A stretch of 64,000 nucleotides of DNA from an archaeon GW2011_AR15 (GCA_000830295.1 CP010425.1:480001-544000), one strand, 5' to 3'. Positions 2,670 to 41,150 are shown, counted from the first letter of the stretch. Numbers and translations are program-made. The notes: generated by a model not told the origin, from the sequence alone.

Positions 2670-3740
2670 CTAGTGATTATTTCTTACTTCGACCATTTCT
2701 TTTATAATTTCCCTTATATTCATAGTTATTTTCCAATCAGGATAATCTCTCTTAAATTTCGACATATCAGTATAATAGCATATATGGTCTCCAACCCTGT
2801 TTTTGTCGCTGTATCTGTAATCCAGTTTCAGTCCGAATTCTTTTTCTAGGATTTCTATTATCTCAAGTATTGAAGCAGAATTTTCCTTGCCCCCTCCAAG
2901 GTTATAGACAGCGCCCTTTTTCGGTTTTTTATAGAATTCATAGAAAGCAGAAACAACGTCCCTGCTGTGGATCTGGTCCCTAACCTGCTTTCCCTTGTAG
3001 CCGAAAATAGTATACGGCAGTTTTTTCTTTGCGCAGTTCACAATATAAGCCAGGAAGCCATGCAGCTTTACTGCGCTGTGCTGCGGGCCCGTCAGACAGC
3101 CCCCCCTGAACACACCAACATTCAACCCGAAATATTTCCCGTATTCCTGGCACAAAACATCAGCGGCTGTTTTTGAAGCCCCCATAAGACTATGCGTGCT
3201 GTTGTCTATAGACATCTCTTCACTGATACCTTTTTGCGATACCCCAGCCAGCTTTTGTTTTTTCCTGTAATCAAATCTTGCAGCGGTCTCTGTAAGCTCT
3301 GCCATGTTAGGCATATCACCGTATACTTTGTTTGTTGATGTAAATATGAACACGCCATTCTGGGAATAGAGCCTGAATGCCTCGAGAAGGTTAAGAGTGC
3401 CTACAGCATTAATATCAAAATCAGTGAAAGGCTCTTTTGCCGCCCAGTCATGGGAAGGCTGCGCTGCCGTGTGTATTATCAAATCGAATGGTCCTTTTTC
3501 TTTAAACAATTTCAGAATCTTTTCCCTTTCTCTTATATCAACATCCATATGTTCAAAGTTTTTGCTGAGTTTTGTTAGGTATGCGGTATTTCCTCTGGTA
3601 TCTCCGCCTTCTCCGAAGAAATATTTTCTCATATTGTTGTCAATGCCGATGACAGTTGCCCCCTTTTCCAGGAAAGACCTTGAGGATTCAAAACCAATAA
3701 GTCCGCCGCAGCCGGTAATGAGAATTTTTTCTTTTTTCAT
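2670..3740 (-). CDS. NAD-dependent epimerase/dehydratase (CDP-tyvelose/paratose epimerase-like extended SDR)
   Basis: TGCGGLIG, HTAAQPSHD, TSTNKVYG and GKQVRD motifs; the YxxxK position reads MGASK. Confidence 0.85.
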   Translation of the reverse strand: MKKEKILITGCGGLIGFESSRSFLEKGATVIGIDNNMRKYFFGEGGDTRGNTAYLTKLSKNFEHMDVDIREREKILKLFKEKGPFDLIIHTAAQPSHDWAAKEPFTDFDINAVGTLNLLEAFRLYSQNGVFIFTSTNKVYGDMPNMAELTETAARFDYRKKQKLAGVSQKGISEEMSIDNSTHSLMGASKTAADVLCQEYGKYFGLNVGVFRGGCLTGPQHSAVKLHGFLAYIVNCAKKKLPYTIFGYKGKQVRDQIHSRDVVSAFYEFYKKPKKGAVYNLGGGKENSASILEIIEILEKEFGLKLDYRYSDKNRVGDHICYYTDMSKFKRDYPDWKITMNIREIIKEMVEVRNNH

Positions 3741-4639: not shown

Positions 4640-5911
4640 ATGAACATATCAGTTGTAGGTTTGGGTTACGTAGGCCTTATACAGGCCGCAGGAATGGCAA
4701 AACTGGGCCATAATGTGCTTGGCTCTGATATGGATAAGAATAAAGTTGATAAAATCAACAGCAAAGAGCCGCCGATATATGAGAACGGCCTGAAAGAAAT
4801 ACTCCAGGAGACAGTTCCTTCCAGATTTTCAGCTTATCAGGAGCTGAAAAAGCCGTTTATGGAGTCAGATGCCACATTCATCTGTGTCGGCACGCCTTCA
4901 AAGAGGCAGGGAGAGATGTCCCTGCACCAGCTTGAAAATGTGATGAGGCAGTTGGGAGAACTTCTTAAAGAGAAAAAATACCATATTTTTGTAATAAAAA
5001 GTACAGTTGTGCCAGGAACATGCGAGAACATTGTAATCCCGGTTGTTGAAAAAGCAAGCGGAAAAAAGTTCAAAAAAGACTTCTCAGTTGTAATGAACCC
5101 GGAATTCTTAAGAGAAGGGGAGGCGCTTGAGGACTTTTTTGACCCTGACAGGATTGTCCTGGGCAGTTCAGATAAAACAGCACTGAAAAAAATAAAAGAG
5201 ATCTACAGTCCATTCAAATGCCCTGTGCTTGAAACAGGTTTTAAAGAGGCAGAAATGATAAAATATGCCTCAAACGCCTTTCTTGCAACAAAAATATCCT
5301 TCATCAATGAGATTGGGAACATATCAAAGACATTTGGGATAGACACAAACATAGTTGCAAAAGGAATAGGCATGGATAAGAGAATCTCCCCACATTTCCT
5401 GAAGTCAGGGATTGGCTTTGGAGGCAGCTGCTTCCCTAAAGATGTCAATGCTATAGTCTACAAGGCTACAGAAAAGGGATATAATCCAAAATTATTAAGG
5501 TCTGTACTTGATGTCAACAGGGACCAGCCCCTTAAGATGATAGAGCTGCTTGACAGGAAAGAGGGCCCGATTAAGGGAAAGAAAATAGGCCTGCTCGGGC
5601 TTACATTCAAGGCAGGGACAGATGACATAAGGGAAAGCCCGGCGCTTGTTACAATCAAAGAACTGCTTATGGAGGAGGCAGAGCTTTACATATATGATCC
5701 GAAGGCAATGGAAAAGACAAAGAAGCTCTTTCCTCACCTGAATTATCTTAGCTCAGCACAGGAAGTTGTTGATGAGTGCGAGGCAGTACTAATACTTACA
5801 GAATGGCCGGAGTTCAGGACCCTTGATTATGGCAAAAAGCTGGTCATAGACGGCAAGAACCTCTTCTTTGACAACCACAGGCCAGAGAATTACGAGGGGA
5901 TTTGCTGGTAA
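4640..5911 (+). CDS. ugd: UDP-glucose 6-dehydrogenase family
   Basis: GLGYVG, ICVGTP, KSTVVPGT, NPEFLREG, KYASNAFLA, GFGGSCFPKD and FKAGTDDIRESP motifs. Confidence 0.93.
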   Translation: MNISVVGLGYVGLIQAAGMAKLGHNVLGSDMDKNKVDKINSKEPPIYENGLKEILQETVPSRFSAYQELKKPFMESDATFICVGTPSKRQGEMSLHQLENVMRQLGELLKEKKYHIFVIKSTVVPGTCENIVIPVVEKASGKKFKKDFSVVMNPEFLREGEALEDFFDPDRIVLGSSDKTALKKIKEIYSPFKCPVLETGFKEAEMIKYASNAFLATKISFINEIGNISKTFGIDTNIVAKGIGMDKRISPHFLKSGIGFGGSCFPKDVNAIVYKATEKGYNPKLLRSVLDVNRDQPLKMIELLDRKEGPIKGKKIGLLGLTFKAGTDDIRESPALVTIKELLMEEAELYIYDPKAMEKTKKLFPHLNYLSSAQEVVDECEAVLILTEWPEFRTLDYGKKLVIDGKNLFFDNHRPENYEGICW

Positions 5912-5990: not shown

Positions 5991-7598
5991 ATGTTTTTTA
6001 AAACCATATTAAAGAAAATATCTAAACACAAGATTGTCCTGTTTTTGATATTATTGAATTTAACCTTAAATCTCATAGGTATTAATTTTGGTCTTCCTGA
6101 TACGTGGCATCCCGATGAACTTACACATTCTGTTACAAGAATGCTGTCAGAAAAAACACTTAATCCTGGAAGATTCACGTATCCTTCTTTTTACCATTAT
6201 GTGCTCATAGCTGCGAATATACCCTATTCGGCATTTTTACTGTTATCAGGAAAAGCGGCGATGTTAGCGACAGATTCAGTACTAAGGCAACAGACAATAG
6301 CAATAATCTTTCTGACGTCTAGGATTGTTACTGCCTTTTTTGGAAGCATACTGGTTTTTCTTATATACATTATAGCAAAAAAAGTCTCGAATGAGAGAGC
6401 GGCCATTATCTCTGCTGCCTTTGCATCTCTAAACATGGCCATAATTACATACTCACATTTTGCAACATCAGACATGCCAGTAACTGTAATGTCTATGCTC
6501 TCTATCTATATGATACTCAGACTTTATGAAAAGCCAATACGTATGAATTATATCCTAACCGGGCTGGCCATAGGGCTTGCTACAGGAACAAAATATTATG
6601 CGGTAGTGTTGGTTCTTTTATTAATAGGAGCGCATTTACTTGCAACAAAAAAAGTTTCAATAAATAAAAATTTAATAATCTCAGGTATGTTGTGCGCTGT
6701 TGGATTTCTAATTACTACCCCTTTTGCAATTCTTGACTTTAACACCTTTTTTAGAGATACCACACTTCTTTTTACGACCGTGCAAACAGTCCAAAATCTT
6801 TACGACCCCGTAACAGCGTTATCCTATTTTTTCCATCTAGATAATGGTCTCGGAACACCCCTTTTTATCCTTAGTTTAATAGGAACAGCATATTGTGTTT
6901 ATTTGGCAAGAAAAAATAATAAATTACTGCTTCTTTTGTCATGGGCAATAGGATATTTTTTGCTTGTATCTTATATCATACACTTCTCATTTTTAAGATA
7001 CATACTTCCTGTTGTGCCAATAATTATTATCTTTGCAGGTGTTTTTTTCAATTATTTGCTTTCATTTAAGAGACACAGAATAATCACTTACTCTTTTCTT
7101 TTTGCAGTTTTGTTATTCAATTTTTCATATGCAATAAAAACAGATATGCTCTTTGTAAAAGATTCTCGTTATTCTTCCACGGAATGGATAAAAGAGAATA
7201 TACCTGATAATTCTAATATATTGATATTTGCGCAAAACCTTAGGTATTTTCCTGACATATCCTCTGAAAAGAACGTAAGTTATCTTAATGTTACAGATTT
7301 TTCAAGTGTTGAAAGTCTAAGAGAAGCAATCAAAAAAATATCACCAGATTATATAATCGAGTCAAGTCTTTACTATAATAGGTACCTCTACTATACCAAC
7401 ATGTATCCAAAAAGATCCCCTCTGCAAGATCTTTTCGGTTATGTGAGCCACGAGCCAGTCGCAACTGATTTTTATAGAGAACTTATAAATGAAAAATTAG
7501 GATATTCATTAATTAAAAAATTCCCGGAAGAAAAAGAGGACGTGCCTGATCCTGAGTTTATAAATCCAACAATTTTAATATTCAAATTAAATAACTAA
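5991..7598 (+). CDS. GT-C fold membrane glycosyltransferase (GT39/ArnT/PMT-like)
   Basis: Multi-TM protein with the WHPDE acidic motif after TM1, FTYPSF, SHFATSD, GLATGTKY and RYILP. Confidence 0.85.
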   Translation: MFFKTILKKISKHKIVLFLILLNLTLNLIGINFGLPDTWHPDELTHSVTRMLSEKTLNPGRFTYPSFYHYVLIAANIPYSAFLLLSGKAAMLATDSVLRQQTIAIIFLTSRIVTAFFGSILVFLIYIIAKKVSNERAAIISAAFASLNMAIITYSHFATSDMPVTVMSMLSIYMILRLYEKPIRMNYILTGLAIGLATGTKYYAVVLVLLLIGAHLLATKKVSINKNLIISGMLCAVGFLITTPFAILDFNTFFRDTTLLFTTVQTVQNLYDPVTALSYFFHLDNGLGTPLFILSLIGTAYCVYLARKNNKLLLLLSWAIGYFLLVSYIIHFSFLRYILPVVPIIIIFAGVFFNYLLSFKRHRIITYSFLFAVLLFNFSYAIKTDMLFVKDSRYSSTEWIKENIPDNSNILIFAQNLRYFPDISSEKNVSYLNVTDFSSVESLREAIKKISPDYIIESSLYYNRYLYYTNMYPKRSPLQDLFGYVSHEPVATDFYRELINEKLGYSLIKKFPEEKEDVPDPEFINPTILIFKLNN

Positions 7599-7604
7599 GG
7601 CAAC

Positions 7605-8534
7605 CTAAAGATTATTTTGATACCAATCCACCGTTTTTCTAATGCCTTCTTTAAGTTTTGTTTTTGGGGCCCAATTTAATTTTTTCTTCATTTTTTTAGC
7701 ACTTAAAATTTTTTTCATGGCACCATCCGGCTTTTCAGCCTGCAAAACAAATTCTCCTTCCCAACCAACAATTTCTTTTATTAATTTAGCCATATCTATT
7801 ATAGAAATCCCCTTTGTCACGCCAACATTCATAATTTCGTTGGGCTCAAATTTTTCAATATTCTCTATAGTTTTCAATATTGCCATTGCACCATCCTCAA
7901 CATAGAGCCACTCTCTGACAGGTTTTCCTGTTCCCCATATTTCAACATGCTTTTTGCCTTTATTTTTTGCGTCTACAATTTTTGAAATCAATGCCCCCAA
8001 AGCATGCGACTTGATAATCTCAAAATGGTCTCCGGGCCCATACATATTCGGAAATATCAGATGTACGGGTCTGAAGTTTGGATTGATCTGGCAGTAAGCA
8101 AAACAATGCCCCCAAAGCATCTTTCTTGGCAGACCATAGGTAAGCACGGAAGGATGCATTTCGCCATCCCACCATTTTGATTCCTCATAGATTTCCATAT
8201 TTCCCGGATATGTACAGTTCGGCATTATATTGATTAATATTGGGATGCCTGCTTCATTACATACTTTAACAACATTCATACTAATTATAGAATTATCTTC
8301 AAATACTTCTACAGGATGCAGTTTATTATATGCTATGCCGCCGACATGTGCGGCACAATGAATCATAATATCTGGCCTTATTTTCAGAACATGTTTCCTG
8401 AATAGATCGTAATTAGTTATATCAATACCTTCTTTCCTGCTGACAGAGAAAACTTTGAATTTATTGGACTCAAGAAGTTTAATCACATTCTTTCCCAGAA
8501 ATCCGGTTCCCCCAGTTACAATAATCTTTTTCAT
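7605..8534 (-). CDS. fcl: GDP-L-fucose synthase-like epimerase/reductase
   Basis: TGGTGFLG, AAHVGGI, CTYP, NMYGPGDHF, WGTGKPVREWLYVED and KPDG motifs. Confidence 0.8.
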   Translation of the reverse strand: MKKIIVTGGTGFLGKNVIKLLESNKFKVFSVSRKEGIDITNYDLFRKHVLKIRPDIMIHCAAHVGGIAYNKLHPVEVFEDNSIISMNVVKVCNEAGIPILINIMPNCTYPGNMEIYEESKWWDGEMHPSVLTYGLPRKMLWGHCFAYCQINPNFRPVHLIFPNMYGPGDHFEIIKSHALGALISKIVDAKNKGKKHVEIWGTGKPVREWLYVEDGAMAILKTIENIEKFEPNEIMNVGVTKGISIIDMAKLIKEIVGWEGEFVLQAEKPDGAMKKILSAKKMKKKLNWAPKTKLKEGIRKTVDWYQNNL

Positions 8535-8569
8535 CTTTATTTAATAAATACACAAACAACTTTTTAAGT

Positions 8570-9331
8570 TTATGCTCTACTTTTCTTTAAAATAACAACA
8601 TATGATGAGCCAAGAGGTCCAGGCTTTCTTTTTTGCACACTTCTTTTTACTATGCCAATTTCAGCATCCATTATCCAACTAAGTACTTTATTTAACGGTT
8701 TAGGGAGGGGTTTCAGCACATTTGAAGACTTCTTGTTTGGGAAGAGCTTTTTCAGAAAAGTAAGAAAAACAAACAAAGGCAACAGAAGAATGTTAAAATG
8801 GCTTATAGTGAGGATTTTCAGCTCGCATTCTTTGGCGATATACCTGATTCTTCCTATATTGTATCTTCTATGATGATGGTATGCATCGTCATTACTGCTC
8901 CAGAGCCATTTATGGGCAGGAACAATAAGAAACAAAATTCCATCTTTTTTGCACACTCTTTTCATTTCGCCTAATGCCCGTATATCGTCTTCAACGTGTT
9001 CGATGACATCAAGGGCAGTTACAATATCAAATGTGTTTTCTTTAAAAGGAATATCGAGAATACTCCCATATCTTATATTTTTTTCAAAACCCCTCTCCTT
9101 GCAGAAATTAATGGCGTTTTCATCCACATCTATGGCCATGAAATCCAGTTTATTTTTTTTCAGATAATCGAGAAATGCCCCTTCACTGCACCCAACATCC
9201 AATAACTTCTTTTTATCTAAATCAGCATACATGTCTTTCAGTAAAGAAATCACTAACTTGTTTCTTGCATTCCCAAACCACCAACCACCTTTTTGCAATG
9301 CATATATTTTTCTGAACACTTCCACTTCCAT
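8570..9331 (-). CDS. Class I SAM-dependent methyltransferase (glycan-locus type)
   Basis: LLDVGCSEG, DVIEHVEDD and VPAHKWLWSSND..HHRRY motifs. Confidence 0.9.
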   Translation of the reverse strand: MEVEVFRKIYALQKGGWWFGNARNKLVISLLKDMYADLDKKKLLDVGCSEGAFLDYLKKNKLDFMAIDVDENAINFCKERGFEKNIRYGSILDIPFKENTFDIVTALDVIEHVEDDIRALGEMKRVCKKDGILFLIVPAHKWLWSSNDDAYHHHRRYNIGRIRYIAKECELKILTISHFNILLLPLFVFLTFLKKLFPNKKSSNVLKPLPKPLNKVLSWIMDAEIGIVKRSVQKRKPGPLGSSYVVILKKSRA

Positions 9332-9375
9332 ATTAATAACACCGTTTCTCCTTATTTTTATAGATATCTTATTTA

Positions 9376-9846
9376 TTAATCAGCCAAGATGATTTCATCG
9401 ACTGGAATGTCCCATTCATTCGTTTCTAGTTTATTCATTAATTGATGTCTGTAACAAAGACCTACAATTCTTTTTTTCCCTTTTATTTTCTCCAAAAATC
9501 TATCAAAATAACCCTTTCCCCTCCCTTTTCTGTTTCCTTTCTCGTCAAACATCCTTCCCGGCACAAAGAAAATTTCAATATCTTCTTTTGTCACAGCAAT
9601 TCTCTTTTTTGGTTCATCAATCCCGTATGCCCCCTTCTGCAGCAACTCAAATTCTCCGATTTCCGATAATTCAATCTCATTTTTCTCTATATTGGACAGC
9701 GGTACCACAACACGCTTTCCACTAAACATCAGATATTTTATTATATTTCTAGTCTCGACTTCGTCATCCTTTGAAATATAAATAAATATAGTCTTAAAAT
9801 CTCTGCACATCTCCAGAACTTTCCTTTCGTAGTCTTTAATATCCAT
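9376..9846 (-). CDS. 5-formyltetrahydrofolate cyclo-ligase (N-terminally short)
   Basis: EVET, GAYGIDEP, VPGRMFD..G.RKGRGKGYFDRFL and WDIPVD motifs. Confidence 0.9.
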   Translation of the reverse strand: MDIKDYERKVLEMCRDFKTIFIYISKDDEVETRNIIKYLMFSGKRVVVPLSNIEKNEIELSEIGEFELLQKGAYGIDEPKKRIAVTKEDIEIFFVPGRMFDEKGNRKGRGKGYFDRFLEKIKGKKRIVGLCYRHQLMNKLETNEWDIPVDEIILAD

Positions 9847-9904
9847 ATTAACAGGTTAACCATATGTATAAATAAAGTTTATAAAGATTTCTTAATTATC
9901 TTGG

Positions 9905-10738
9905 ATGATGAAACTACTAGATGGCATGAAAGTCAGTGAAGGTATCTCTACCAATCTTGCAAAAATTACAGGCAAATTAAATTTAAAGCTTTCAATAATC
10001 TTGGTTGGCAAAAACCCATCATCAGTTGTTTATGTAAATGCTAAGAAAAGAAAATGCAATACATTAGATATTGAATGTGATGTAGTTCATTTTGATAATG
10101 ATGTTAAAGAAAAGAAAATTCTCGAAAAAATTGAATTACTTAACAATGATAGGATGGTTTCCGGAATTTTGGTCCAGCTTCCTCTCCCCTCTCATCTTGA
10201 CACAAGAAAAATACTAGATTCTGTTGATATAGGTAAAGATGTCGACGGCCTAAATTCATATTATCTAACAAAAATATTCCTGAATGAGGAGAAAATAGTT
10301 CCATGTACTCCAAAAGGAGTTATAACATTGCTTGATTATTATAAAATTAATTTATACGGCAAAAGGATATGTATTCTTGGTTTTAGCAATATAGTTGGGA
10401 AACCCCTAGCTGCAATGTGTATTAACAGAGGGGGGACGGTAACTATATGCAACAGTAAAACAAAGAATATAAAAGAGCACACACTAAGGTCAGATATAAT
10501 CATGAGCTCTGTTGGGAAACCAAAGCTGGTAACAAAGAACATGGTTTCGGATGGAGCAATTGTTGTAGATATAGGTTTTTCAAAAATTAAAGGAAAGACA
10601 TATGGTGATGTTGATTTTAACAACGTCAAAGAAAAATGCGCATATATATCTCCGGTTCCCGGGGGAGTCGGGCCAATGACAATAGTAAGTCTAATACAAA
10701 ATTTAATTCTCTTAAAGAAACTTAAGGACAATTTCTGA
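9905..10738 (+). CDS. folD: Methylene-THF dehydrogenase / methenyl-THF cyclohydrolase
   Basis: YVNAK (YxxxK), GILVQLPLP, KDVDG, PCTPKG, GDVDF and SPVPGGVGPMT motifs. Confidence 0.96.
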   Translation: MMKLLDGMKVSEGISTNLAKITGKLNLKLSIILVGKNPSSVVYVNAKKRKCNTLDIECDVVHFDNDVKEKKILEKIELLNNDRMVSGILVQLPLPSHLDTRKILDSVDIGKDVDGLNSYYLTKIFLNEEKIVPCTPKGVITLLDYYKINLYGKRICILGFSNIVGKPLAAMCINRGGTVTICNSKTKNIKEHTLRSDIIMSSVGKPKLVTKNMVSDGAIVVDIGFSKIKGKTYGDVDFNNVKEKCAYISPVPGGVGPMTIVSLIQNLILLKKLKDNF

Positions 10739-10746
10739 ATCTTTTA

Positions 10747-11541
10747 TCACATTGAATTCCAAAGTTCTTCAAATCTAAAAAACCTCTTTTTATTTTTTCT
10801 GAATAATGCATATCCTTCTCTATTTGGCCATGAGAAGTAAGAATGACCTCCTTCTTTTTGCTTAATCGATTTTATTTTGCCTTTCTTTAACTTATTATTG
10901 ATTTCAGAAATCATCTTCTCTATCAATTTTGAACTCTTATAATATACTCTCTGCATAGTGTCATTGGTATCTATAGTATATTTTTTCTGCAAAATTATTT
11001 CTCCGGTGTCCAGCATCGTATTTATGTAATGTGCAGTTACGCCACCTTTTTTCTCATTGTTCGCCGTGACCCAAAAATACGCACATAGCCCCCTGTATTT
11101 TGGTAATAAAGAATCATGAAAATTTATACAGCCATTCTTTGGGATTTTCAAAACCTCTTCCTTTATTTTCTGTGGATAAGAGACACTATAAATAATATCT
11201 GGCCTTAATTTTTTCATTAAATTTATAGTCTCTTCGCTATTGATATCTGCCGTCTTAAATATTGGAAATTTATATTCTTTTGAATATTTGATAAATGGTT
11301 TTAATTGTCCAATATTTAGTGAAGTTTTGATTCTATAGATTTTCTCTTCAAACCATTTGTAAAGACAAAACTGAAAAAAACTCTTCTTAAGCAAGAACCG
11401 CACCGAGCCAAAGAAAGATTTTTTAGGGATAATGAAATCAGGAAATATTACACCAATAATCTCTTTTTTATTTTCCCTCAAAAAATTTTTCAGGGCAATA
11501 TTTGCATACATGTGGTCATTAGATAAGATAAGTATTTTCAT
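10747..11541 (-). CDS. 10-formyl-THF-dependent (sugar) N-formyltransferase
   Basis: CINFHDSLLPKYRG and GVTAHY...LDTGEII carry the Asn/His/Asp catalytic set. It lacks the Fmt C-terminal tRNA-binding domain and lies in a glycan locus. Confidence 0.88.
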   Translation of the reverse strand: MKILILSNDHMYANIALKNFLRENKKEIIGVIFPDFIIPKKSFFGSVRFLLKKSFFQFCLYKWFEEKIYRIKTSLNIGQLKPFIKYSKEYKFPIFKTADINSEETINLMKKLRPDIIYSVSYPQKIKEEVLKIPKNGCINFHDSLLPKYRGLCAYFWVTANNEKKGGVTAHYINTMLDTGEIILQKKYTIDTNDTMQRVYYKSSKLIEKMISEINNKLKKGKIKSIKQKEGGHSYFSWPNREGYALFRKNKKRFFRFEELWNSM

Positions 11542-11563
11542 TCTATGCTTTCAGTTCCAACAA

Positions 11564-12661
11564 TTATTTTTCATAAAATTTGATAATAGTTCTGCAAACA
11601 TATTCTATCTGTTCTTTTGCGAGGCTGCAAAACACAGGCAGAGAAAGGCCACAAGTATAGGCCATCTCGGAAATATGATAGTTCTCATTCTTGCTCTTTA
11701 AATCAGAGAAGCATGGCTGCTTATGCAAAGGATAAAAGAATCTTCTTGTCTCTATCTTGTTTTTTTCAAGATAATCAACAAGTTCTTCTACCTTTTCTGC
11801 AAGAATGTTTGCACGGAAAGGTACGATATTTGTGTAGCTATTTTCTCCAAGAAACTTTATCTGTTTTACATTTTTCAGAAGATTTTTGTACATAGCATAA
11901 TTATTCAGTTTTATTTTCTCAATTTCTCCAAATTTTTTTATTTGAGCAACACCAACGGCGCACTGCAAATCTGTCATTCTAAAGTTCATTCCAATCCCCG
12001 GATGGATAAATGTGCTGCTATGTGGTCTTCCCTGATTCCTAAGAAGCTTTATTCTTTCATATATAATCTCATTATTTGTTAGTATCACCGCACCTTCTCC
12101 TGTTGTTATTGTCTTATCTGCAAAAAAAGAAATCATGCCCACATCCCCAATAGTGCCGGTATGTGTTCCTTTGTAAAATACGCCGAAGCCTTGCGCAGCA
12201 TCCTCGATAACCAGCAGATTGTGTTTTTTTGCAATACGCATTATGGGATCCATATCACATGACTGGCCATAGATATGGACAGGCATTATCGCTTTGGTTT
12301 TTTTGGTTATTTTTTCTTCAATTTTTTCTGGATCCATGTTTAAATCTGTCTTTGCAACATCCACAAAAACAGGAGTTGCACCAGTAAATGCAATTGAGGA
12401 GCCAGAGGCATTAAATGTAAAATCAGACACAATAACTTCATCGCCTTTCTTGATCCCACAGCCAAGCAAACACAGGAACAATGCAAGAGTGCCATTAGAC
12501 GCCAGGAGGGCATATCTGGCTTTTGTAAATTCCTGCAGCCTGTCAAGAAATTCCTTGGCAAAAAGCCCTTCAGACAGCCATTTATTCCTGATAACAATCT
12601 CTAGATTTTGCAATTCCTCCTTGCCAACATAAGGCTCTAATTGTGGTACTTTGTATTCCAT
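11564..12661 (-). CDS. DegT/DnrJ/EryC1/StrS sugar aminotransferase (perosamine synthase-like)
   Basis: NGTLAL, PVHIYGQ, EDAAQ, SFFADKTITTGEG (PLP lysine) and GMNFRMTDLQCAVG motifs. Confidence 0.92.
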   Translation of the reverse strand: MEYKVPQLEPYVGKEELQNLEIVIRNKWLSEGLFAKEFLDRLQEFTKARYALLASNGTLALFLCLLGCGIKKGDEVIVSDFTFNASGSSIAFTGATPVFVDVAKTDLNMDPEKIEEKITKKTKAIMPVHIYGQSCDMDPIMRIAKKHNLLVIEDAAQGFGVFYKGTHTGTIGDVGMISFFADKTITTGEGAVILTNNEIIYERIKLLRNQGRPHSSTFIHPGIGMNFRMTDLQCAVGVAQIKKFGEIEKIKLNNYAMYKNLLKNVKQIKFLGENSYTNIVPFRANILAEKVEELVDYLEKNKIETRRFFYPLHKQPCFSDLKSKNENYHISEMAYTCGLSLPVFCSLAKEQIEYVCRTIIKFYEK

Positions 12662-12690
12662 GTTTCAACACCTAAAACCATCACTATCGT

Positions 12691-14127
12691 CTAAAATAAT
12701 TTAAATTTTACAAATGCTTTCCAGGCCATCTTGAGCAACAAAAATAAATGCTTGAATTTACTGATTATATTTTTTCCATAGGCCTTTGGTTCACCATATA
12801 TTCTAGGAACATAATGTACAGGTATTTCAACAACTTTTAAATTATGCCCTATTGCTCCGAATATCAGCTCAAAATCACCAAAAGGGTCAAAATCACCAAA
12901 ATAACTTATATTTTTTCTTATCTTAAGATAATTTTTTTTGGAAATGGCTTTGAAACCACACAATGTGTCTGTGAACCTTTGGCCTAAAATAACCGTAAAT
13001 AGGTTTCCAAAGAACCGATTTATTATAAAATTGCCAAAAGGCATAGCATCTTTTTCCATTGCATAGACTAGGCGCGTGCCATTTACATATTCTCCAAGAC
13101 CAAGTGCATATGCATCATAAAAGAGCTTTATCTCTTCCGGCGGGGAAGTAAGGTCTGCTTCAAGCCAGCACACAAAATCACCTTTTGCATTATCGAATCC
13201 CATCCTGAAAGCATCACCCTGTCCAATCCCTCTTTGTTTCAGGAATTTTATATCTTTATCAGGGTATTTCTTAATCATTTCCTTGATTTTTTTGACAGTA
13301 TTGTCTTTTGAATGCCCTTCAACAAACAATATTTCTGTGTTTTTTCCCATAGAAGGTATTTTTTTTACAAGCTCCTCAATATTGCCCTCCTCATCTCTAC
13401 AAGTTATTACAACCGAGGTGGTTATGTCCTTGACATTGTCCGGGGGGCACATTAGCCGGGCTATCACGACTTGTTCAAGGCAAAACCGCCTTATTACCGG
13501 CAATTTTGATATTAATGTGTTTGATGCTTCAGAGACAATGGGAAAATATTTCGGAAACAGGAGGAAAAAATCCCTCTTAATCACTTGGTATCCGGCAATA
13601 TAAAGGAAATTATCAATATCATCTATAGAAGGCCAGTTAAATATCATTTCAGGCTTCTTCATTCCTAAAGATTCAGATATTTTTAGTATAGGGTTCCACA
13701 GTTGATTGTAATAGTTTATTATGAGCCTTGTGTCTGAACTACACATCTTTGAGATATTCTGAAGCAGTCTCTGTATATTCTTTACAGACCCGATAGTACC
13801 GGAGATTATAATATAATCAAATTTAAAATCAACAGAAAAAGATTCAATATCTTCACAATAGAACTTTATTTTAGGATATTTTTTCTTTGCTATTTTTATC
13901 ATTCCATCACTTATATCAACTCCAACACCATAAGAAGAGTAAAGATTTCCAATTAAATTACCAGCACCACATCCAAGCTCCAGTATACTGCTGTTTCTCG
14001 GGATGTTATTTCTATAATATCTTAGTATTTGACTATGATAATACATATTTTTTTTATACCAGGTGTCCCATCTTTTAGAAACAGAATTATTGATCTCCCT
14101 TATTTTATTCAGCTTATCACCCACCAT
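12691..14127 (-). CDS. Fusion of a SAM methyltransferase domain and a GT2 (polyprenol-phosphate glycosyltransferase-like) domain
   Basis: N-terminal ILELGCGAG. C-terminal SVVITCRDEEGNI, EGHSKDNT, LEADL, GTRLVY, TDTLCGFK and DPFGDF. Confidence 0.88.
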   Translation of the reverse strand: MVGDKLNKIREINNSVSKRWDTWYKKNMYYHSQILRYYRNNIPRNSSILELGCGAGNLIGNLYSSYGVGVDISDGMIKIAKKKYPKIKFYCEDIESFSVDFKFDYIIISGTIGSVKNIQRLLQNISKMCSSDTRLIINYYNQLWNPILKISESLGMKKPEMIFNWPSIDDIDNFLYIAGYQVIKRDFFLLFPKYFPIVSEASNTLISKLPVIRRFCLEQVVIARLMCPPDNVKDITTSVVITCRDEEGNIEELVKKIPSMGKNTEILFVEGHSKDNTVKKIKEMIKKYPDKDIKFLKQRGIGQGDAFRMGFDNAKGDFVCWLEADLTSPPEEIKLFYDAYALGLGEYVNGTRLVYAMEKDAMPFGNFIINRFFGNLFTVILGQRFTDTLCGFKAISKKNYLKIRKNISYFGDFDPFGDFELIFGAIGHNLKVVEIPVHYVPRIYGEPKAYGKNIISKFKHLFLLLKMAWKAFVKFKLF

Positions 14128-14147
14128 AATAGCATTCCAACCCCGCC

Positions 14148-15203
14148 CTAATCATAATATTCGCTCGCGGAGCTTTCCTTCCAGTCAGATTCCACCATAA
14201 TTCTCACAAGCTCTTTAAACTTTGTTTTTGGTTGCCATTTTAGTTTTTTCTTGGCTTTTGTTGAATCCCCAAGCAGCGTATCAACCTCTGCAGGTCTGAA
14301 GTATCCTTTGTCTATTCTAATTATAGCTTTGCCGGTTTTTTTATCGATTCCAACTTCATCCAGGCCTTTACCTTCCCATTTAATCTGAATTCCAAGAACA
14401 TTACATGTTTCTTCAATAAACTCTCTTACAGAATGGTTTTCTCCTGTTGCAATGACATAATCTTCAGGTCTCTCCTGTTGCAGCATAAGCCACATTGCCT
14501 CAACATAATCCTTAGCATACCCCCAATCTCTCTCTGCATTAATATTTCCAAGATAAACACAATCCTGCAATCCTTTTTTCACTCTGCACAGCCCCAATGT
14601 TATTTTTCTTGTTACAAAAGTTTCACCCCTTCTTGGGGATTCATGATTAAACAGGATTCCATTGCAGGCAAATAAATTATAGGCCTCCCTGTAATTTACA
14701 GTTATCCAGTAAGAAAAAACTTTTGCGCAGGCATACGGGCTTCTCGGATGAAACGGGGTTGTTTCTTTCTGTGGTGTCTCCCATACTTTACCAAATATCT
14801 CTGAGCTTGATGCCTGATAGAACCTTGATTTGAACTGATTTTCCCTTAATGCTTCTAGTATTCTCAGCGTGCCCAACGCAATAGTGTCAGCTGTATATTC
14901 AGGAATCTCAAAACTGACTTTTACGTGACTTTGGGCTCCAAGATTGTAAATTTCATTTGGTCTGATAGTCCTTAATATGTGGTTTATGTTACTAGCATCT
15001 GTAAGGTCACCGTATATAGTATCAAATCTTGGATGATTGTAGATATGGTTTATCCTTTTTGTATTAAATGAGCTTGATTTTCTTTGTATCCCATATACAT
15101 TATAGCCTTTTTCCAATAGAAACTCAGCAAGATAGGAGCCGTCCTGCCCAGTAATTCCGGTTATCAATGCCCTTTTGGCGCTTTTTGTTGTCTCGTTAGT
15201 CAT
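14148..15203 (-). CDS. gmd: GDP-mannose 4,6-dehydratase
   Basis: [52 protein letters not shown] and RDWGYA motifs. Confidence 0.97.
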
Positions 15204-16555: not shown

Positions 16556-18106
16556 ATGGCAGAATACTCAAAAAAAATAGTAAAAGGCACAATAACAGTG
16601 CTTATTTTCACGTTTCTTTCTGCTCTTTTGGGATATGTTCTGAAATTCGTGTTTGCAAGATATCTGCAGGTTGAAGAGATTGGTCTTTTTTATTCCGTTC
16701 TGGGATTTATTCTTTTCTTTGCATTCATCAGAGATTTGGGTCTGTCTGATTCCCTTACGTATTTTATTCCAAGATTTAAAGTAGATAACAAAAAGAAAAA
16801 TATCAAATCAGCTATTTTATTTACACTCTATATCCAGATGGCAATCGGAATTCTGTTTGCTGTTGTTTTTGTTGCATTGTCAAATACTCTTGTAAAATAT
16901 TATTTTAAGGATGAACGGGCACTTTTTCTCATACTCGGGCTTGCATTTTACTTTGTTATCGAAGGGATTTATGAAGTATTATTCCAATCTTTCCAGGGAT
17001 TTCAGGATATGTTTCTTTTTCAGGGGCTGGAGTTTTCTTTCCAGGTCATATCACTTGCCTTTTTTTTGGTATTTATATTTGCCAAAATACCAATAACATA
17101 TTTTGCCATAGTTTATCTTATTAGCATGATAATTTCCACAACAATTTTCTTCGTTTTGTTTGTTAAAAAGTTGTTTCCGGATTTCTTTTATATAAAGACA
17201 AAAATATCAAAAAAACTGAAAAAAGAAATGCTTGAGTATTCATTTCCAACAATGATGGGTAGCCTTGCGGGTACAATCTTTAGCCAGCAATCAGTATTCT
17301 TCCTCACTTTTTTTGTAGGACTTGAAGCAGTGGGCTATTATGTCATGGCGCACGCTCTTGCAAAAATCTCAATCTTCTTTTTCAAGGCTGTAAATTTTGT
17401 TTTTTCCCCCATAATGTCAGAGATGTGGAAAAAGAAAGACATCAAAAGCCTGAATTATTATTTTAATGAAATGATAACATACACATATGTTGTTGGGGTT
17501 CCGATGGTCCTCGCTCTTGTTGTTTTTCCCCAAGAGATTCTTAGGATATTATATTCAGACTCCTTTTTGCCAGCATCACAAGCCCTAATGCTATTAGCAT
17601 TTTATTACCCTTTTTTTAGTTTTAACAGCCTCTTCAAAAGAGCATTTTTAAGCGCCGGCATGCCAAAACTTGCAAGAAATGCAACGTATGCCACACTAAT
17701 AGTAAACCTGGTTTTTAATATTGTTCTTATCCCCACATATGGCCTTCTTGGTGCAGTAATAGCCGATATAGTATCTATCGCTATTACAACAATTTATGTA
17801 TTATATCTAAACCACAAACACCTATCAATCCTCATAGATAAAAATAAACTTGTAAGGGTTATCGTAGCTTCAACACTTTTCATCATATCTGCGGCCGTCC
17901 TTAAGCACATAATTAACATGCCAATAATCCTTGAATTGATTTTAGTATTGATTATTGCAGGCGGCACTTATATAGGGGCCATATTCGCTCTTGGCATAAT
18001 ATCGTTTAAGAAAATAATTTTTGTTTTGGATTTAATTACCAATAAGAAGTTTAGGCATTATTTTTTGAAAGAAGAGAAAGTGCCAATTAAAGATACCCCC
18101 AAATAG
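16556..18106 (+). CDS. MOP-superfamily oligosaccharide flippase (Wzx/AglR-like)
   Basis: About 14 hydrophobic segments, DLGL motif and LIPTYGLLGAVIA C-terminal signature. Confidence 0.88.
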   Translation: MAEYSKKIVKGTITVLIFTFLSALLGYVLKFVFARYLQVEEIGLFYSVLGFILFFAFIRDLGLSDSLTYFIPRFKVDNKKKNIKSAILFTLYIQMAIGILFAVVFVALSNTLVKYYFKDERALFLILGLAFYFVIEGIYEVLFQSFQGFQDMFLFQGLEFSFQVISLAFFLVFIFAKIPITYFAIVYLISMIISTTIFFVLFVKKLFPDFFYIKTKISKKLKKEMLEYSFPTMMGSLAGTIFSQQSVFFLTFFVGLEAVGYYVMAHALAKISIFFFKAVNFVFSPIMSEMWKKKDIKSLNYYFNEMITYTYVVGVPMVLALVVFPQEILRILYSDSFLPASQALMLLAFYYPFFSFNSLFKRAFLSAGMPKLARNATYATLIVNLVFNIVLIPTYGLLGAVIADIVSIAITTIYVLYLNHKHLSILIDKNKLVRVIVASTLFIISAAVLKHIINMPIILELILVLIIAGGTYIGAIFALGIISFKKIIFVLDLITNKKFRHYFLKEEKVPIKDTPK

Positions 18107-21381: not shown

Positions 21382-22350
21382 ATGCAAAAAGTGCTTGTAA
21401 TCGGGGGTGCAGGATTCATTGGGTCTTTTATAGCAAGAGCCTTAGTTGAAAGAAAAATAGATGTTACAATATTTGACTCCTTTTACCAATATCTTCCAAA
21501 ACTTGTTCCTGACGAAAATAAGATACTGGCACAGGAAAATAGGTTTAAGGATATAGAAGGCAAAATTAAGGTTATTAGGGGCAATGCTGCAAATTATGGA
21601 GAAGTAAGGAGGGCAATTGAAGAGCAGGACCCGGACTGCATAATACACCTTGCAGGACTCCCATTAGCGAACAAATCGAATATCTATATCGAAGAATCGC
21701 TTGAGGGTGTGAAAGCTACAGGATGCATACTGCAGGTCATAAAAGACACAGGAAAGAAAATAAAATTTATCTACACCTCGTCAAGCACAGTGTACGGCGA
21801 TTTTGTATATCAGCCGGCAGATGAGGATCACCCCAAAAATCCGAGGGGAGTATATGCAGGGGTTAAGCTTGCAGGAGAACATATTACCTCATCATTCTGC
21901 CGCCAGTTTAACATTTCATATGTAATAATCAGGCCGAGCGGAGTTTATGGGCCGACAGACATAAATGAAAGGGTTGTGCAGAAATTCATAGAAAATGCAA
22001 TTGAGGGAAAGGAGATTGTCGTAAAAGACCCGACAAATATGATAGACTTCACATATGTGAAAGACCTTGCCGAAGGATATGCCCTTGCAGTTATAAAAGA
22101 AGAAGCCAATAACGAAACTTTTAACATTACTTGCGGCCAGGGAAGAACACTTGGTGAGCTTGCAGAGATAATAAAGAAGCATTTCCCGAAAACTAAATTG
22201 AAGATTGATGAGGCAGACAAAGACCTTCCAAGAAGAGGCGGGCTTAGCATAGAGAGAGCGAAAAAGAAGCTTGGGTATGTACCAAAATATCCACTCGAAA
22301 AAGGAATTGAGGAATATATTGTGTATTATAAGAGAAATGTCAGAAAATAA
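21382..22350 (+). CDS. NAD-dependent epimerase/dehydratase
   Basis: GGAGFIG, SSSTVYG, YAGVK, RPSGVYGP and DFTYVKD motifs. Confidence 0.9.
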   Translation: MQKVLVIGGAGFIGSFIARALVERKIDVTIFDSFYQYLPKLVPDENKILAQENRFKDIEGKIKVIRGNAANYGEVRRAIEEQDPDCIIHLAGLPLANKSNIYIEESLEGVKATGCILQVIKDTGKKIKFIYTSSSTVYGDFVYQPADEDHPKNPRGVYAGVKLAGEHITSSFCRQFNISYVIIRPSGVYGPTDINERVVQKFIENAIEGKEIVVKDPTNMIDFTYVKDLAEGYALAVIKEEANNETFNITCGQGRTLGELAEIIKKHFPKTKLKIDEADKDLPRRGGLSIERAKKKLGYVPKYPLEKGIEEYIVYYKRNVRK

Positions 22351-23479
22351 AGTACCATTATGCAGGCCAGAAATTGGAGAAAAAGAGATAGAGGAGATAA
22401 AAAGAGTTCTGGATTCCGGCTGGCTGGCGCATGGTCCCAAGGTAAAAGAATTTGAAAAAAAATTTGCCGAATATATCGGTGTGAAGTATGCGGTTTCCCT
22501 CAATTCCTGTGCATCAGCCCTTCAGGCTGCAATAATGGCAAAAAACCTGAAGGGAGAGATAATTCTTCCTTCTTTTACCTTTCCTGCCTCAGCCAATGCA
22601 ATAATCAATGCAGGATGTATTCCAGTATTTGCAGAGATAAGAAAAGACACAATGAACATAGATATTTCCGATGTAGAGAAGAAAATCACTTTAAGAACAG
22701 TTGGCATAATGCCAGTCCATTTTGCAGGTCAAAGCTGTGAAATGGATAAGATAATGGAGCTTGCAAAAAAACACAATATGACGATCATAGAAGATTCTGC
22801 AGAAGCAATAGGAACAACATATACTGGCAAAAAAACAGGAGCTTTTGGAGAGGGATGTTTTAGCTTTTACCCGACAAAAAATATAACCACGGCAGAGGGA
22901 GGCATGGTTACCACAAACAGCAAAGAAACTGCCGAGATGGTACAGACTATAAGGGGGCACGGAGTAAGCAAGGGCGCATATGAAAGGGAACATGCTGAAA
23001 AGCCATGGATAAGAATGGCAACAATGCCGGGATATAATTTCAGGATGAATGAGATACAGGCCGTGCTTGGTATTGAACAATTGAAAATCCTGGATGAACT
23101 CAATGAAAAGAGAAGAAAGAATGCTCAATATCTGAACCGAGGATTATCTCGGTATAGGGAAATAACAACACCATATGAAGATAAGAAAGGAAAGCACACA
23201 TACCAGATGTATGTAATTCAGCTTGATGAAAAAATAGATAGGGATGCTTTTGTAATATATTTGAGAAATAACGGCGTGGAAGCAAATGTCCATTTCTTTC
23301 CCGGAGTCCATCAGCATCCGTATTATGAAAAAACATTTGGGAAAAAGAGTCTGCCAGTAACAGAATCAATTTCTAGAATAGTTGCTACACTACCGATGTT
23401 TCCATCGATGACAAAGAAGCAAATGGATATAATAATTGAGAAAGTTGGAGAAGCCCTGAAAACAGCAAGATGGCATTAA
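22337..23479 (+). CDS. DegT/DnrJ sugar aminotransferase
   Basis: PVHFAGQ, EDSAEA, SFYPTKNITTAEGG and GYNFRM motifs. Start placed at MSENK. Confidence 0.92.
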   Translation: MSENKVPLCRPEIGEKEIEEIKRVLDSGWLAHGPKVKEFEKKFAEYIGVKYAVSLNSCASALQAAIMAKNLKGEIILPSFTFPASANAIINAGCIPVFAEIRKDTMNIDISDVEKKITLRTVGIMPVHFAGQSCEMDKIMELAKKHNMTIIEDSAEAIGTTYTGKKTGAFGEGCFSFYPTKNITTAEGGMVTTNSKETAEMVQTIRGHGVSKGAYEREHAEKPWIRMATMPGYNFRMNEIQAVLGIEQLKILDELNEKRRKNAQYLNRGLSRYREITTPYEDKKGKHTYQMYVIQLDEKIDRDAFVIYLRNNGVEANVHFFPGVHQHPYYEKTFGKKSLPVTESISRIVATLPMFPSMTKKQMDIIIEKVGEALKTARWH

Positions 23480-39863: not shown

Positions 39864-40075
39864 CCGAACCACCTCTTCACTAAAATACCTACAACAGCAA
39901 GAGCAGCAGTGTAAGGCAGAATATTCAGATAGCTCCATGAAAGAGGGAGCTTTTCAAGAAAACTTAATACAAAATATAAGAGAAAAGAGGAAACAAAATA
40001 AGCAGAGATAACGCCGACATATTTTCCCAGCGAGTATAATTTCTGACTTCTTTTAAAATCCATTCTATCTTTCAA
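39860..40075 (-). CDS. Small two-TM protein, possibly the N-terminal half of SxtJ
   Basis: 71 aa, two hydrophobic segments, overlaps both neighbours. Confidence 0.6.
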   Translation of the reverse strand: MKDRMDFKRSQKLYSLGKYVGVISAYFVSSFLLYFVLSFLEKLPLSWSYLNILPYTAALAVVGILVKRWFG

Positions 40076-41003: not shown

Positions 41004-41150
41004 ATCCGCTAAAGAAACCGGGATTTGTTTTAAGCTTTTTGCTTTTGGAAATTTTTTTTGTGCTTTTTGAGGAGTAACTATCATAGTCCCAAATAGTGGA
41101 AAAATATAAATACTATAGTGTCCTACAAAGGAAAAATGGGTGGTAGGTAT

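Follow-up and report, generated by a model that had tools for sequence, protein, structure and literature searches.

The archaeon GW2011_AR15 carries its only FolD and its only 5-formyl-THF cyclo-ligase (5-FCL) homologue inside a cassette of sugar-modification genes, next to the only Formyl_trans_N gene of the genome, a putative sugar-type N-formyltransferase (FT). We think it likely, judging from sequence and from related genomes, that this cassette makes an N-formylated 4-amino-6-deoxy sugar with a formyl donor supplied by the adjacent folate enzymes, and that the sugar is then loaded on a lipid and transferred by a GT-C glycosyltransferase. The product would most likely be GDP-4-formamido-4,6-dideoxy-D-mannose (GDP-N-formylperosamine). 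A search of the literature found no prior description of folate genes in such a sugar cassette.

The window, i.e., the whole stretch of 64,000 nucleotides analyzed here, holds the nine genes of the cassette between positions 5991 and 15203 (Table 1). All were recovered where the original prediction had placed them, using ORF calls, Pfam, and NCBIfam. As it had proposed, the genes encoding Gmd, the methyltransferase-GT2 fusion (MT-GT2), the DegT aminotransferase, and the FT are co-oriented; their intergenic gaps are of 20-29 bp. The positive strand of FolD and GT-C had not been described: FolD is convergent with the FT (8 bp gap) and divergent from 5-FCL (58 bp gap), and GT-C is convergent with the fcl-like SDR (6 bp gap). 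The block is indeed AT-rich, its genes having 29.8-38.5% GC in a genome of 42.5%, and the 20 kb from window position 5001 are the lowest-GC 20 kb of the entire 1.16 Mb genome. The latter consists of one contig, is 96.8% complete, and its SSU and LSU rRNA match archaeal Rfam models best, in line with the expected archaeal host. Many GT1/GT4 genes and a Wzx flippase populate the rest of the island.

Table 1. Genes of the cassette, of its island, and of the host folate metabolism located in the window (positions are counted from the first nucleotide of the window)
Feature	Position	Strand	Evidence
SDR adjoining ugd, CDP-tyvelose-2-epimerase-like	2670..3740		
Ugd	4640..5911		NCBIfam
GT-C membrane glycosyltransferase, PMT_2/PMT type	5991..7598	+	PF13231 1.3e-13; PF02366 3.6e-10
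GDP-L-fucose synthase-like (fcl-like) SDR	7605..8534	-	NF047922 202.9 bits, under cut-off 500; PDB GDP-L-fucose synthase 1.9e-44
SAM-dependent methyltransferase	8570..9331	-	PF08241 8.2e-22
Short 5-FCL homologue, 156 aa	9376..9846	-	PF01812 1.8e-31; TIGR02727 128.4 bits, cut-off 84.9
FolD (methylene-THF dehydrogenase / methenyl-THF cyclohydrolase)	9905..10738	+	PF02882 2e-57, 193 bits; PF00763 3.2e-31, 108 bits
Putative sugar-type N-formyltransferase (FT), 264 aa	10747..11541	-	PF00551 E 8.2e-26, single domain
DegT-family NDP-sugar aminotransferase, perosamine-synthase-like	11564..12661	-	PF01041 E 5.8e-104
SAM methyltransferase (N-terminal) + DPMS/ArnC-like GT2 fusion (MT-GT2)	12691..14127	-	Pfam
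Gmd (GDP-mannose 4,6-dehydratase), first of the co-oriented four-gene run	14148..15203	-	TIGR01472 563.6 bits, cut-off 415; PF16363 E 2.7e-149
Wzx/MOP-family flippase, adjoins cassette (context)	16556..18106	+	PF01943 3.7e-23
Second DegT, PseC/ArnB-like	22271..23479		ArnB model 296 bits
UXS-like UDP-GlcA decarboxylase	40065..41084		3e-101
FolC (folylpolyglutamate synthase), outside island	47270..48538	-	TIGR01499 304.3 bits, cut-off 162.65; GC 44.7%

In the pathway that we propose, Gmd would dehydrate GDP-mannose, the perosamine-synthase-like DegT would aminate C4, and the FT would formylate the amine with 10-formyl-THF. The donor would be produced by the adjacent FolD from the 5,10-methylene-THF of an unlinked SHMT, if the flux runs in this direction, while the short 5-FCL homologue could return 5-formyl-THF, obtained by salvage or as a side product of SHMT, to the pool. 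The GT2 would then probably load the sugar on dolichyl phosphate, and the GT-C would probably hand the sugar on, outside the membrane, to an acceptor. The fcl-like SDR is possibly a second branch off the Gmd product.

The last two steps rest on the similarities of the two glycosyltransferases. MT-GT2 consists of a methyltransferase domain (Methyltransf_31/25/23, residues 36-183) and a Glycos_transf_2 domain (residues 238-392) in Pfam. Its best solved relatives are the Dol-P-Man synthase of P. furiosus (7.6e-20), ArnC (6.7e-12), and GtrB, and all the nearest solved relatives of the GT2 domain are polyprenyl-P glycosyltransferases. We thus propose it as a candidate polyprenyl-phosphate sugar transferase, one that scores 46 bits on the ArnC model of NCBIfam (cut-off 529). 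The GT-C has approximately 9-10 hydrophobic segments and no solved relative that we could find by sequence; it is a candidate for transferring the sugar from the polyprenyl-P carrier outside the membrane. A different handling of the formyl sugar is somewhat unlikely, albeit the strongest of the alternatives: cytoplasmic glycosyltransferases would add it to a lipid-linked oligosaccharide flipped by Wzx, and MT-GT2 and GT-C would serve other sugars. This would fit an island rich in GT1/GT4 genes and endowed with a Wzx flippase, and also the lack of a predicted transmembrane segment in MT-GT2, in contrast to DPMS and ArnC, which carry such segments. Furthermore, known bacteria assemble their N-formylperosamine O-antigen in the cytoplasm, with transferases that use the nucleotide sugar, and G286 has the only other sugar-linked FolD locus with a GT-C nearby. 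However, the relatives of the GT2 domain point to lipid loading, 5 of the 22 FT loci found in the same archaeal order have a DPMS-like GT2 directly adjoining the FT, mirroring ArnA and ArnC, and the GT-C gene is convergent with this very block.

Which sugar is made depends on the FT and on the aminotransferase. The FT has the formyltransferase domain (PF00551) without the C-terminal domain of Fmt (PF02911), and it falls well below the cut-offs of the NCBIfam models of PurN (57 bits for a cut-off of 150) and fmt (96.5 for 201.5). The catalytic Asn-His-Asp triad is kept (N140, H142, and D178 are invariant in an alignment of 25 sequences), and the NxH..SLLPxYRG..D motif aligns to that of ArnA. 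The best matches in the PDB (phmmer) are the FT domain of ArnA (5.6e-21), WbkC (3.2e-18), Fmt (4.4e-18), and PseJ (5.5e-18). Residues 43-74 form a helical hairpin insert in the AF2 model (pLDDT 92.7), and Foldseek gives TM-scores of 0.6-0.73 for Fmt, ArnA, FDH, WlaRD, and WbkC alike, which leaves Fmt and FDH unseparated from the others. Hence, the possibility that the FT groups with Fmt or PurN, which would have spoken against the original prediction, is only partly set aside: the protein is not PurN-like and lacks the Fmt C-terminal domain, but neither sequence nor fold splits it cleanly from Fmt. The top PDB match of the cassette DegT is 7b0m (2.6e-75), which carries no name beyond "sugar aminotransferase"; the nearest named ones are the perosamine synthetases 3bn1 and 3dr7 (4e-69), with ArnB at just 3e-37. 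This DegT reaches no NCBIfam equivalog cut-off and has 175 bits for 631 in the ArnB model (NF008658). Given a DegT most similar, among named enzymes, to perosamine synthases and an FT that looks like ArnA and WbkC, GDP-N-formylperosamine is the likely product.

The same logic could apply to another NDP-amino sugar, such as UDP-4-amino-4-deoxy-L-arabinose (Arn) or the amino sugar of the second DegT, which we regard as unlikely. In its favor, the best solved match of the FT is from ArnA, the island also encodes Ugd, the PseC/ArnB-like DegT, and the UXS-like UDP-GlcA decarboxylase, and the folate genes of relatives accompany other sugars, e.g., in nonulosonic-acid clusters. Yet, the FT gene is closely packed, in one orientation, with gmd and the perosamine-synthase-like DegT, the Gmd/DegT/GT2/FT set recurs in two other genomes (G069 and G051), and the second DegT gene overlaps a GNAT acetyltransferase gene. 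The UDP-Ara4N variant, which had been put forward with the SDR adjoining ugd as the UDP-GlcA decarboxylase, is weak: ArnB is only a distant relative of the cassette DegT, and this SDR is tyvelose-epimerase-like, not a decarboxylase. The UXS-like enzyme is encoded approximately 29 kb away, and enzymes of the UXS type usually go on to a reduction of the 4-keto intermediate, so that their reaction ends at UDP-xylose.

Concerning the supply of the formyl donor for the N-formylperosamine that we favor, FolD keeps the YxxxK, GILVQLPLP, PCTP, and PGGVGP motifs in the alignment, and scores 294 bits on its best NCBIfam equivalog, under the cut-off of 423, which makes it a divergent member of the family. 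The 5-FCL homologue retains the core GKGYFD motif and covers positions 38-184 of the 186 in the PF01812 profile. The regions covered by its alignments are residues 42-173 in 1sou and 48-198 in human MTHFS, and it thus fails to match the MTHFS family over its full length, including the N-terminal helix. The open frame has 159 aa, which excludes a longer start. As the missing stretch of around 35 positions bears ATP-binding residues in canonical enzymes, the protein may be no working cyclo-ligase, and its predicted activity in the cassette is uncertain. The short form is also found in G002, G286, and G158.

The rest of the folate metabolism is encoded elsewhere. SHMT, ThyA, DHFR (adjoining ThyA), and FolC all lie outside the cassette and have 44.7-46.7% GC, to be compared with 33.2% for FolD, 34.8% for 5-FCL, and 29.8% for the FT. 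Hence, the cassette is not fully self-contained, as it had been called. We did not find FTHFS, PurH, ThyX, or folP in this nearly complete genome, and tblastn searches of it revealed no PurH, PurE, PurL, PurN, or FTHFS. Given the lack of folate synthesis, PurN, PurH, and FTHFS, and since an archaeon needs no fMet, no consumer of 10-formyl-THF other than the predicted sugar FT is visible. This would explain why the folate formyl branch is located in the glycan island, with which it would be inherited and exchanged.

The association between FolD and sugar genes recurs in related archaea. Among the 101 FolD loci examined in the same order, classed by blastp against a custom panel with a Pfam check on part of them, 61 are purine-linked, 16 are beside a DegT and/or a non-PurN FT, none is both, and 24 have neither type of neighbor. 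The 16 sugar-linked loci span 11 families and include 15 genomes besides the host, so that FolD is not unlinked from such genes in relatives, an outcome that would have weakened the original prediction. For example, in G002, which belongs to the same genus, the same divergent pair of short 5-FCL and FolD heads a different amino-sugar operon, with a PseB-like dehydratase, a DegT, and an FT. G403 encodes on one strand (Pfam) an SDR, a PseB-like protein, a DegT, FolD, SHMT, 5-FCL, an FT, a 2-epimerase, and NeuB. G305 has a 5-FCL-FolD-SHMT triple fusion protein, with two FT genes, one DegT, and a FolC-like gene adjoining it. Taking the FT-like loci as the starting point, FolD is present within the fetched stretch in 7 of 22 and absent nearby in 12; the stretch is too short in the other 3. 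The linkage is enriched in genomes lacking purine synthesis, as anticipated: it was found in 10 of the 18 genomes with FolD and without PurH, and in 6 of the 79 examined with both. The argument of the only consumer is therefore not valid for all sugar-linked genomes, since 6 of the 16 hold a PurH-like gene.

The FolD of the cassette is set apart by its phylogeny as well as by its composition. On the tree, it forms a group (SH-aLRT 99) with the FolDs from G002, G286, and G158, all of them glycan-linked. More broadly, 16 of the 17 rows labelled as glycan-linked sit in one group of 17 rows, whose SH-aLRT of 89 is under the star threshold, and the label requires 3 changes on the tree for a mean of 16 when shuffled. 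These FolDs have lower Pfam scores than those of purine operons. Forcing family f1 to keep its six FolDs in one group lowers the likelihood by 93.3 lnL (p-AU 0.0019), in a test on a reduced set of 39 rows under LG+G4 with the group named after the first tree was inspected. Hence, of the possibility that FolD and 5-FCL are vertically inherited housekeeping single copies, the single copy stands, but the lineage of FolD differs from that of same-family relatives. That the adjacency is coincidental, with housekeeping folate genes sitting in the island and serving needs besides sugar formylation, is very improbable: even if these are the only copies of the genome, most FolDs of the order are purine-operon genes, and nearly a quarter have neither type of neighbor, no other formyl-THF user was found in this genome, FolD and 5-FCL have the 33-35% GC of the island while the other folate genes are at 45-47%, the linkage occurs with different sugar modules in the 15 other genomes, some as operons or fusions, and the FolD lineage is not that of the family.

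The idea that folate genes in a glycan cassette feed a sugar FT in a host without other formyl demand is thus supported by independent comparative evidence. Because the only donor enzymes lie beside the only FT, and because the same pairing is found in related archaea, the folate formyl branch is probably there, in this host, to formylate cell-surface sugars. Whether this extends to the whole order, a large one composed of archaea with small genomes, is an evenly balanced matter: the branch, made of FolD and 5-FCL, often with SHMT and FolC (three being fused in one genome), would be a horizontally exchanged accessory of N-formylation cassettes, and in purine auxotrophs its sole job would be glycan N-formylation. 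If so, N-formyl sugars of the perosamine and nonulosonic-acid types would be common and selectively important on the surfaces of these episymbiont-like archaea, which would explain the retention of FolD in genomes that shed purine synthesis.

Among the closest known systems is the bacterial GDP-N-formylperosamine pathway (Gmd, Per, and WbkC; structures 5vyr-5vyu). The cassette shares with it the Gmd equivalog, a DegT for which perosamine synthetases are the closest solved relatives that bear a name, and an FT of likewise around 260 aa with no extra domain and the Asn-His-Asp triad. It differs by its archaeal host, by an FT that has only approximately 21-24% identity with WbkC when the structures are aligned and carries the hairpin insert, and by the addition of FolD and the 5-FCL homologue. 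To our knowledge, the bacterial clusters have no such genes, and our literature search found none reported. The Arn system (PmrHFIJKLM) of lipid A aminoarabinose has the same order of reactions as proposed here, i.e., aminotransferase, 10-formyl-THF-dependent FT, DPMS-like GT2 working on polyprenyl phosphate, and GT-C on the outside of the membrane, and provides the best solved match of the FT (ArnA-N) and a match of the GT2 (ArnC). However, the cassette starts from GDP-mannose instead of UDP-GlcA, its DegT is far below the ArnB cut-off, its FT lacks the fused decarboxylase domain of ArnA, and its acceptor cannot be lipid A. We found no ArnD-like deformylase in the window, with no match to the polysaccharide-deacetylase family among the ORFs scanned, and identified no ArnE/F-type flippase. 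The description as Arn-like thus holds for the logic, but the cassette does not belong to the Arn pathway.

Two other systems occur within the order itself. The purine-operon clusters have the same pair of FolD and 5-FCL, often with SHMT, directly beside the formyl consumer, and sometimes as fusions (5-FCL-FolD, PurN-5-FCL, and PurD-FolD); the consumers are PurN and PurH in these clusters and the sugar FT in the cassette. Finally, the synthesis of N-formylated nonulosonic acids involves PseJ (structures 6ci2/6ci4), which is among the PDB matches of the cassette FT listed above. The nonulosonic-acid-like relatives (G403, G251, G214, G147, and G273) encode a PseB-like dehydratase, a DegT, an FT, a 2-epimerase, NeuB, and a CMP-transferase, whereas the cassette has Gmd in place of the PseB-like dehydratase and no NeuB. 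The folate genes in these nonulosonic-acid clusters are a new element.

The cassette comprises nine genes and lies within a glycan region of about 38 kb (window 2.7-41 kb), which has six further GT1/GT4 genes outside the cassette (see the table). Every gene named in the original prediction was present in the ORF list and in the Pfam and NCBIfam scans. The co-orientation described there holds for gmd, the methyltransferase-GT2 fusion, the DegT aminotransferase, and the formyltransferase (FT), which form a minus-strand run with gaps of 20-29 bp. FolD and the GT-C gene are on the plus strand. Elsewhere in the region, the second DegT and its overlapping acetyltransferase look like a separate N-acetyl amino-sugar branch. 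The same heptose-nucleotide set with GT9 is found in G002, a genome of the same genus, whose island also has the radical-SAM and carbamoyltransferase genes.

Genes of the cassette and other features of the window
Feature	Window position	Strand	Remarks
gmd	14148-15203	-	TIGR01472, 563.6 bits (cut-off 415)
Methyltransferase-GT2 fusion	12691-14127	-	
DegT aminotransferase	11564-12661	-	
Formyl_trans_N protein (FT)	10747-11541	-	264 aa
FolD	9905-10738	+	Converges on FT, 8 bp gap
5-FCL homologue (5-formyl-THF cyclo-ligase)	9376-9846	-	156 aa; diverges from FolD, 58 bp gap
Methyltransferase	8570-9331		After the 5-FCL homologue
GDP-fucose-synthase-like SDR	7605-8534		PDB match 1.9e-44
GT-C protein, PMT_2 type	5991-7598	+	Converges on the GDP-fucose-synthase-like SDR
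Second DegT (PseC/ArnB-like) and GNAT acetyltransferase	22271-23910		DegT overlaps the start of the GNAT gene
Heptose-nucleotide pathway and GT9 heptosyltransferase	25627-32079		SIS isomerase, PfkB kinase, HAD-cytidylyltransferase fusion, epimerase; in an archaeal host
B12-binding radical-SAM gene and carbamoyltransferase	29142-30923, 37861-39621		
FolC	47270-48538		37 kb from the cassette, normal GC
5S rRNA gene	2496-2611		Solitary
Hef-type fusion	57574-59763		DEAD-box helicase, ERCC4 nuclease, HhH motifs

The host is an archaeon, as its SSU and LSU rRNA match archaeal Rfam models best, and its genome consists of one contig (C1) of 1,157,790 bp with an estimated completeness of 96.8%. The only Rfam match within the window is the 5S rRNA gene, which lies well away from the SSU-LSU operon (C1:1.04 Mb). 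The Hef-type fusion fits an archaeal host. In family searches across the whole genome, FolD, 5-FCL, and Formyl_trans_N each turned up once, always in the cassette. SHMT (C1:1.02 Mb) and ThyA are also single copies, the latter with DHFR directly adjoining (thyA and folA at C1:36470-37849). The same searches found no FTHFS, PurH, ThyX, or folP, and tblastn with the purine enzymes of relatives found no PurH, PurE, PurL, or PurN, and nothing beyond PurB and one weak match of ATP-grasp type. We therefore conclude that GW2011_AR15 salvages folate and purines while running a dTMP cycle, and that the cassette FT is the single recognisable consumer of its formyl branch. Given the distance and normal GC of FolC, and the location of thyA and folA elsewhere, the dTMP branch is held apart from the formyl branch. 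The two sets of folate genes also differ in composition: ThyA, DHFR, SHMT, and FolC have a GC content of 44.7-46.7%, whereas FolD (33.2%) and 5-FCL (34.8%), like FT (29.8%), are each within the lowest 1-4% of 800-bp windows. In line with the AT-rich block noted originally, no other 20 kb of the genome is as low in GC as the stretch starting at window position 5001.

The linkage between folate and sugar genes was searched in relatives. In a close sample of 41 genomes, GW2011_AR15 included, FolD passed the Pfam cut-off in 13 and 5-FCL in 15, and no FT orthologue was found (best match at 31% identity). In larger relatives, FolD and 5-FCL are inside a purine operon (PurD, 5-FCL, FolD, PurN, PurH) and sometimes fused. 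One such fusion, a 5-FCL-FolD protein of 469 aa in G015 (L043:5121-6530), was confirmed by Pfam. Further fusions in purine operons of the order (L084, L088, L095, L149), known from panel blastp labels only, are PurN-5-FCL (about 420 aa), PurD-PurN-5-FCL (854 aa), and PurD-FolD (747 aa). FolD and 5-FCL adjoin FTHFS in G003, a genome of the same genus as GW2011_AR15. G002 has the same short 5-FCL divergent from FolD. There, 5-FCL leads an operon with a PseB-like dehydratase, a DegT, and a 214-aa formyltransferase other than that of the cassette, with glycosyltransferases around, so that one folate pair accompanies different amino-sugar modules in the two genomes.

We extended the analysis to 401 genomes of the order, from 136 families, where matches were found in 25 genomes for FT-like proteins (E <= 1e-15), 106 for FolD, 161 for Formyl_trans_N, and 132 for PurH. 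Among 22 FT-like loci examined with their flanks, FolD was within the fetched stretch in 7 and absent in 12, the contigs of the other three being too short. We then classified the neighbours of FolD, fetching up to 10 kb on each side in FolD-positive genomes. This set omits six genomes flagged as unpublished, one with fragmented matches, and two loci without a FolD ORF label; with four close relatives added, it has 101 loci. Purine genes only were found within 10 kb of FolD at 61 of them, and DegT and/or a non-PurN formyltransferase, with no purine gene, at 16, spread over 11 families. The remaining 24 have neither type of neighbour, and none has both. The SHMT-FolD-GT2 arrangement of G263, a candidate for glycan linkage, is classed as "neither" by this systematic rule. 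A low PF00551 score was also rejected as a mark of sugar-type formyltransferases, since PurN-5-FCL fusions in the purine operons of one family score low as well.

Several of the sugar-linked loci include further folate genes, as identified by Pfam. In G403, a single-strand operon has an SDR, a PseB-like dehydratase, DegT, FolD, SHMT, 5-FCL, FT, a UDP-GlcNAc 2-epimerase, and a NeuB/CMP-transferase: a nonulosonic-acid pathway with a complete formyl-donor route embedded. The loci of G251, G214, G147, and G273 are similar. In G061 and G090, 5-FCL is fused to FolD, and the locus also has a FolC-like gene, SHMT, and an FT. In G305, a single ORF of 872 aa (L074:5964-8582) joins 5-FCL, both FolD domains, and SHMT, and adjoins a FolC-like Mur-ligase gene, two formyltransferases, and a DegT. 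In six other genomes (G069, G333, G208, G051, G138, G355), FolD is purine-linked, and the sugar-formyltransferase cluster, located separately, lacks FolD.

The linkage was predicted to be enriched in purine-less genomes, and this is what we observe: among the classified genomes of the order sample, sugar-linked FolD is present in 10 of the 18 with FolD and no PurH versus 6 of the 79 with both, counts for which we give no p-value because related genomes are not independent. A PurH-like gene is thus present in six of the genomes with sugar-linked FolD. Of the 17 rows labelled glycan-linked in the FolD tree (101 rows), 16 cluster in a single group of 17 rows, whose SH-aLRT of 89 is not starred. 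The label requires 3 changes on this tree against a mean of 16 when shuffled, and none of 500 shuffles gave a value as low. The window FolD groups with those of G002, G286, and G158, the last two from another family, with 99% support, and these genomes share with it the short 5-FCL and the divergent arrangement. The FolDs of G003, G008, G014, and G015, from the same family as GW2011_AR15, are elsewhere on the tree. Constraining the six FolDs of this family to one group lowers the log-likelihood by 93.3 units (p-AU 0.0019) in an AU test on a 39-row subset under LG+G4, the group being taxonomic but named after the tree was seen. The alternative, that FolD and 5-FCL are vertically inherited housekeeping copies, is right in that they are single copies, but vertical descent is disfavoured by the tree, the AU test, and the low GC. 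Together, these favour a FolD/5-FCL lineage moving along with glycan cassettes over one descending from the family's purine-operon copy.

The cassette 5-FCL lacks the first ~35 profile positions (it starts at position 38), its frame is not extendable, and its alignment to solved enzymes begins at residue 42 or 48. As G002, G286, and G158 all retain this short form, divergent from FolD in every case, the gene is not a pseudogene, but its activity is uncertain. A scan of genome contigs with the FT found one locus, at 32% identity, in a Nitrosopelagicus record, and a scan of metagenome contigs found 11 loci at 32-35%, with none of the closer orthologues (P0002-P0012, 56-70% identity) among the latter. 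One of these orthologues (P0004, 66%) and a FolD homologue (P0123, 63%) have the same longest contig, of 139,452 bp, which hints at a conserved cassette.

Among solved structures, the cassette DegT is closest to a sugar aminotransferase with no further name (2.6e-75) and to perosamine synthetases (4e-69), with ArnB a much weaker match (3e-37). The best solved matches of the FT are the ArnA formyltransferase domain (5.6e-21), WbkC, the GDP-perosamine formyltransferase (3.2e-18), Fmt (4.4e-18), and PseJ. The FT lacks the C-terminal domain of Fmt, and its residues Asn140, His142, and Asp178 are invariant in 25 homologues. The AlphaFold model of FT is confident (pLDDT 92.7). As Foldseek ranks Fmt, ArnA, FDH, WlaRD, and WbkC alike against it (TM 0.6-0.73), the predicted fold leaves the substrate class unsettled. 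In the model, residues 43-74 add a hairpin of two helices between strands two and three, with many Phe, Lys, and Leu residues; this insertion is kept in the 56-70% orthologues and may contact the membrane or a partner. The solved relatives of the GT2 domain (Dol-P-mannose synthase, ArnC, GtrB) are all polyprenyl-phosphate transferases, and the methyltransferase-GT2 protein has no predicted membrane segment. From these likenesses, and mainly from the operon context, our best guess for the product is therefore GDP-N-formylperosamine. UDP-Ara4N, the alternative first considered, is a weak candidate: the SDR adjoining ugd is tyvelose-epimerase-like, the sole UDP-GlcA decarboxylase is UXS-like and 29 kb away, and ArnB is distant.

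The N-formylation of sugars is well studied in bacteria. To our knowledge, the housekeeping pool has always been presumed to supply its formyl donor. What is new is that glycan cassettes contain the enzymes for the formyl donor, which are apparently dedicated to them. Full-text literature searches returned no description of formyl-donor genes in glycan cassettes, and the passages that matched deal broadly with gene fusions and purine genes. In this lineage, the enzymes making the donor belong to the glycan cassette itself, and in many of its members a sugar formyltransferase is the sole recognisable user of the formyl donor. This accounts in concrete terms for the retention of FolD and 5-FCL by reduced archaea that are auxotrophic for purines, and it predicts that cells of an uncultured archaeal radiation bear N-formyl sugars on their surfaces. 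The natural 5-FCL-FolD-SHMT fusions are evidence for a dedicated formyl-THF channel, and the cassettes offer a small set of enzymes, testable in vitro, for producing N-formyl sugars from serine or folinic acid. Compared with the Arn pathway, the cassette falls outside on the type of ArnB, the decarboxylase, and the deformylase, although its downstream logic is alike, from aminotransferase to formyltransferase, polyprenyl-phosphate GT2, and GT-C. Its predicted chemistry matches the bacterial route of Gmd, Per, and WbkC.
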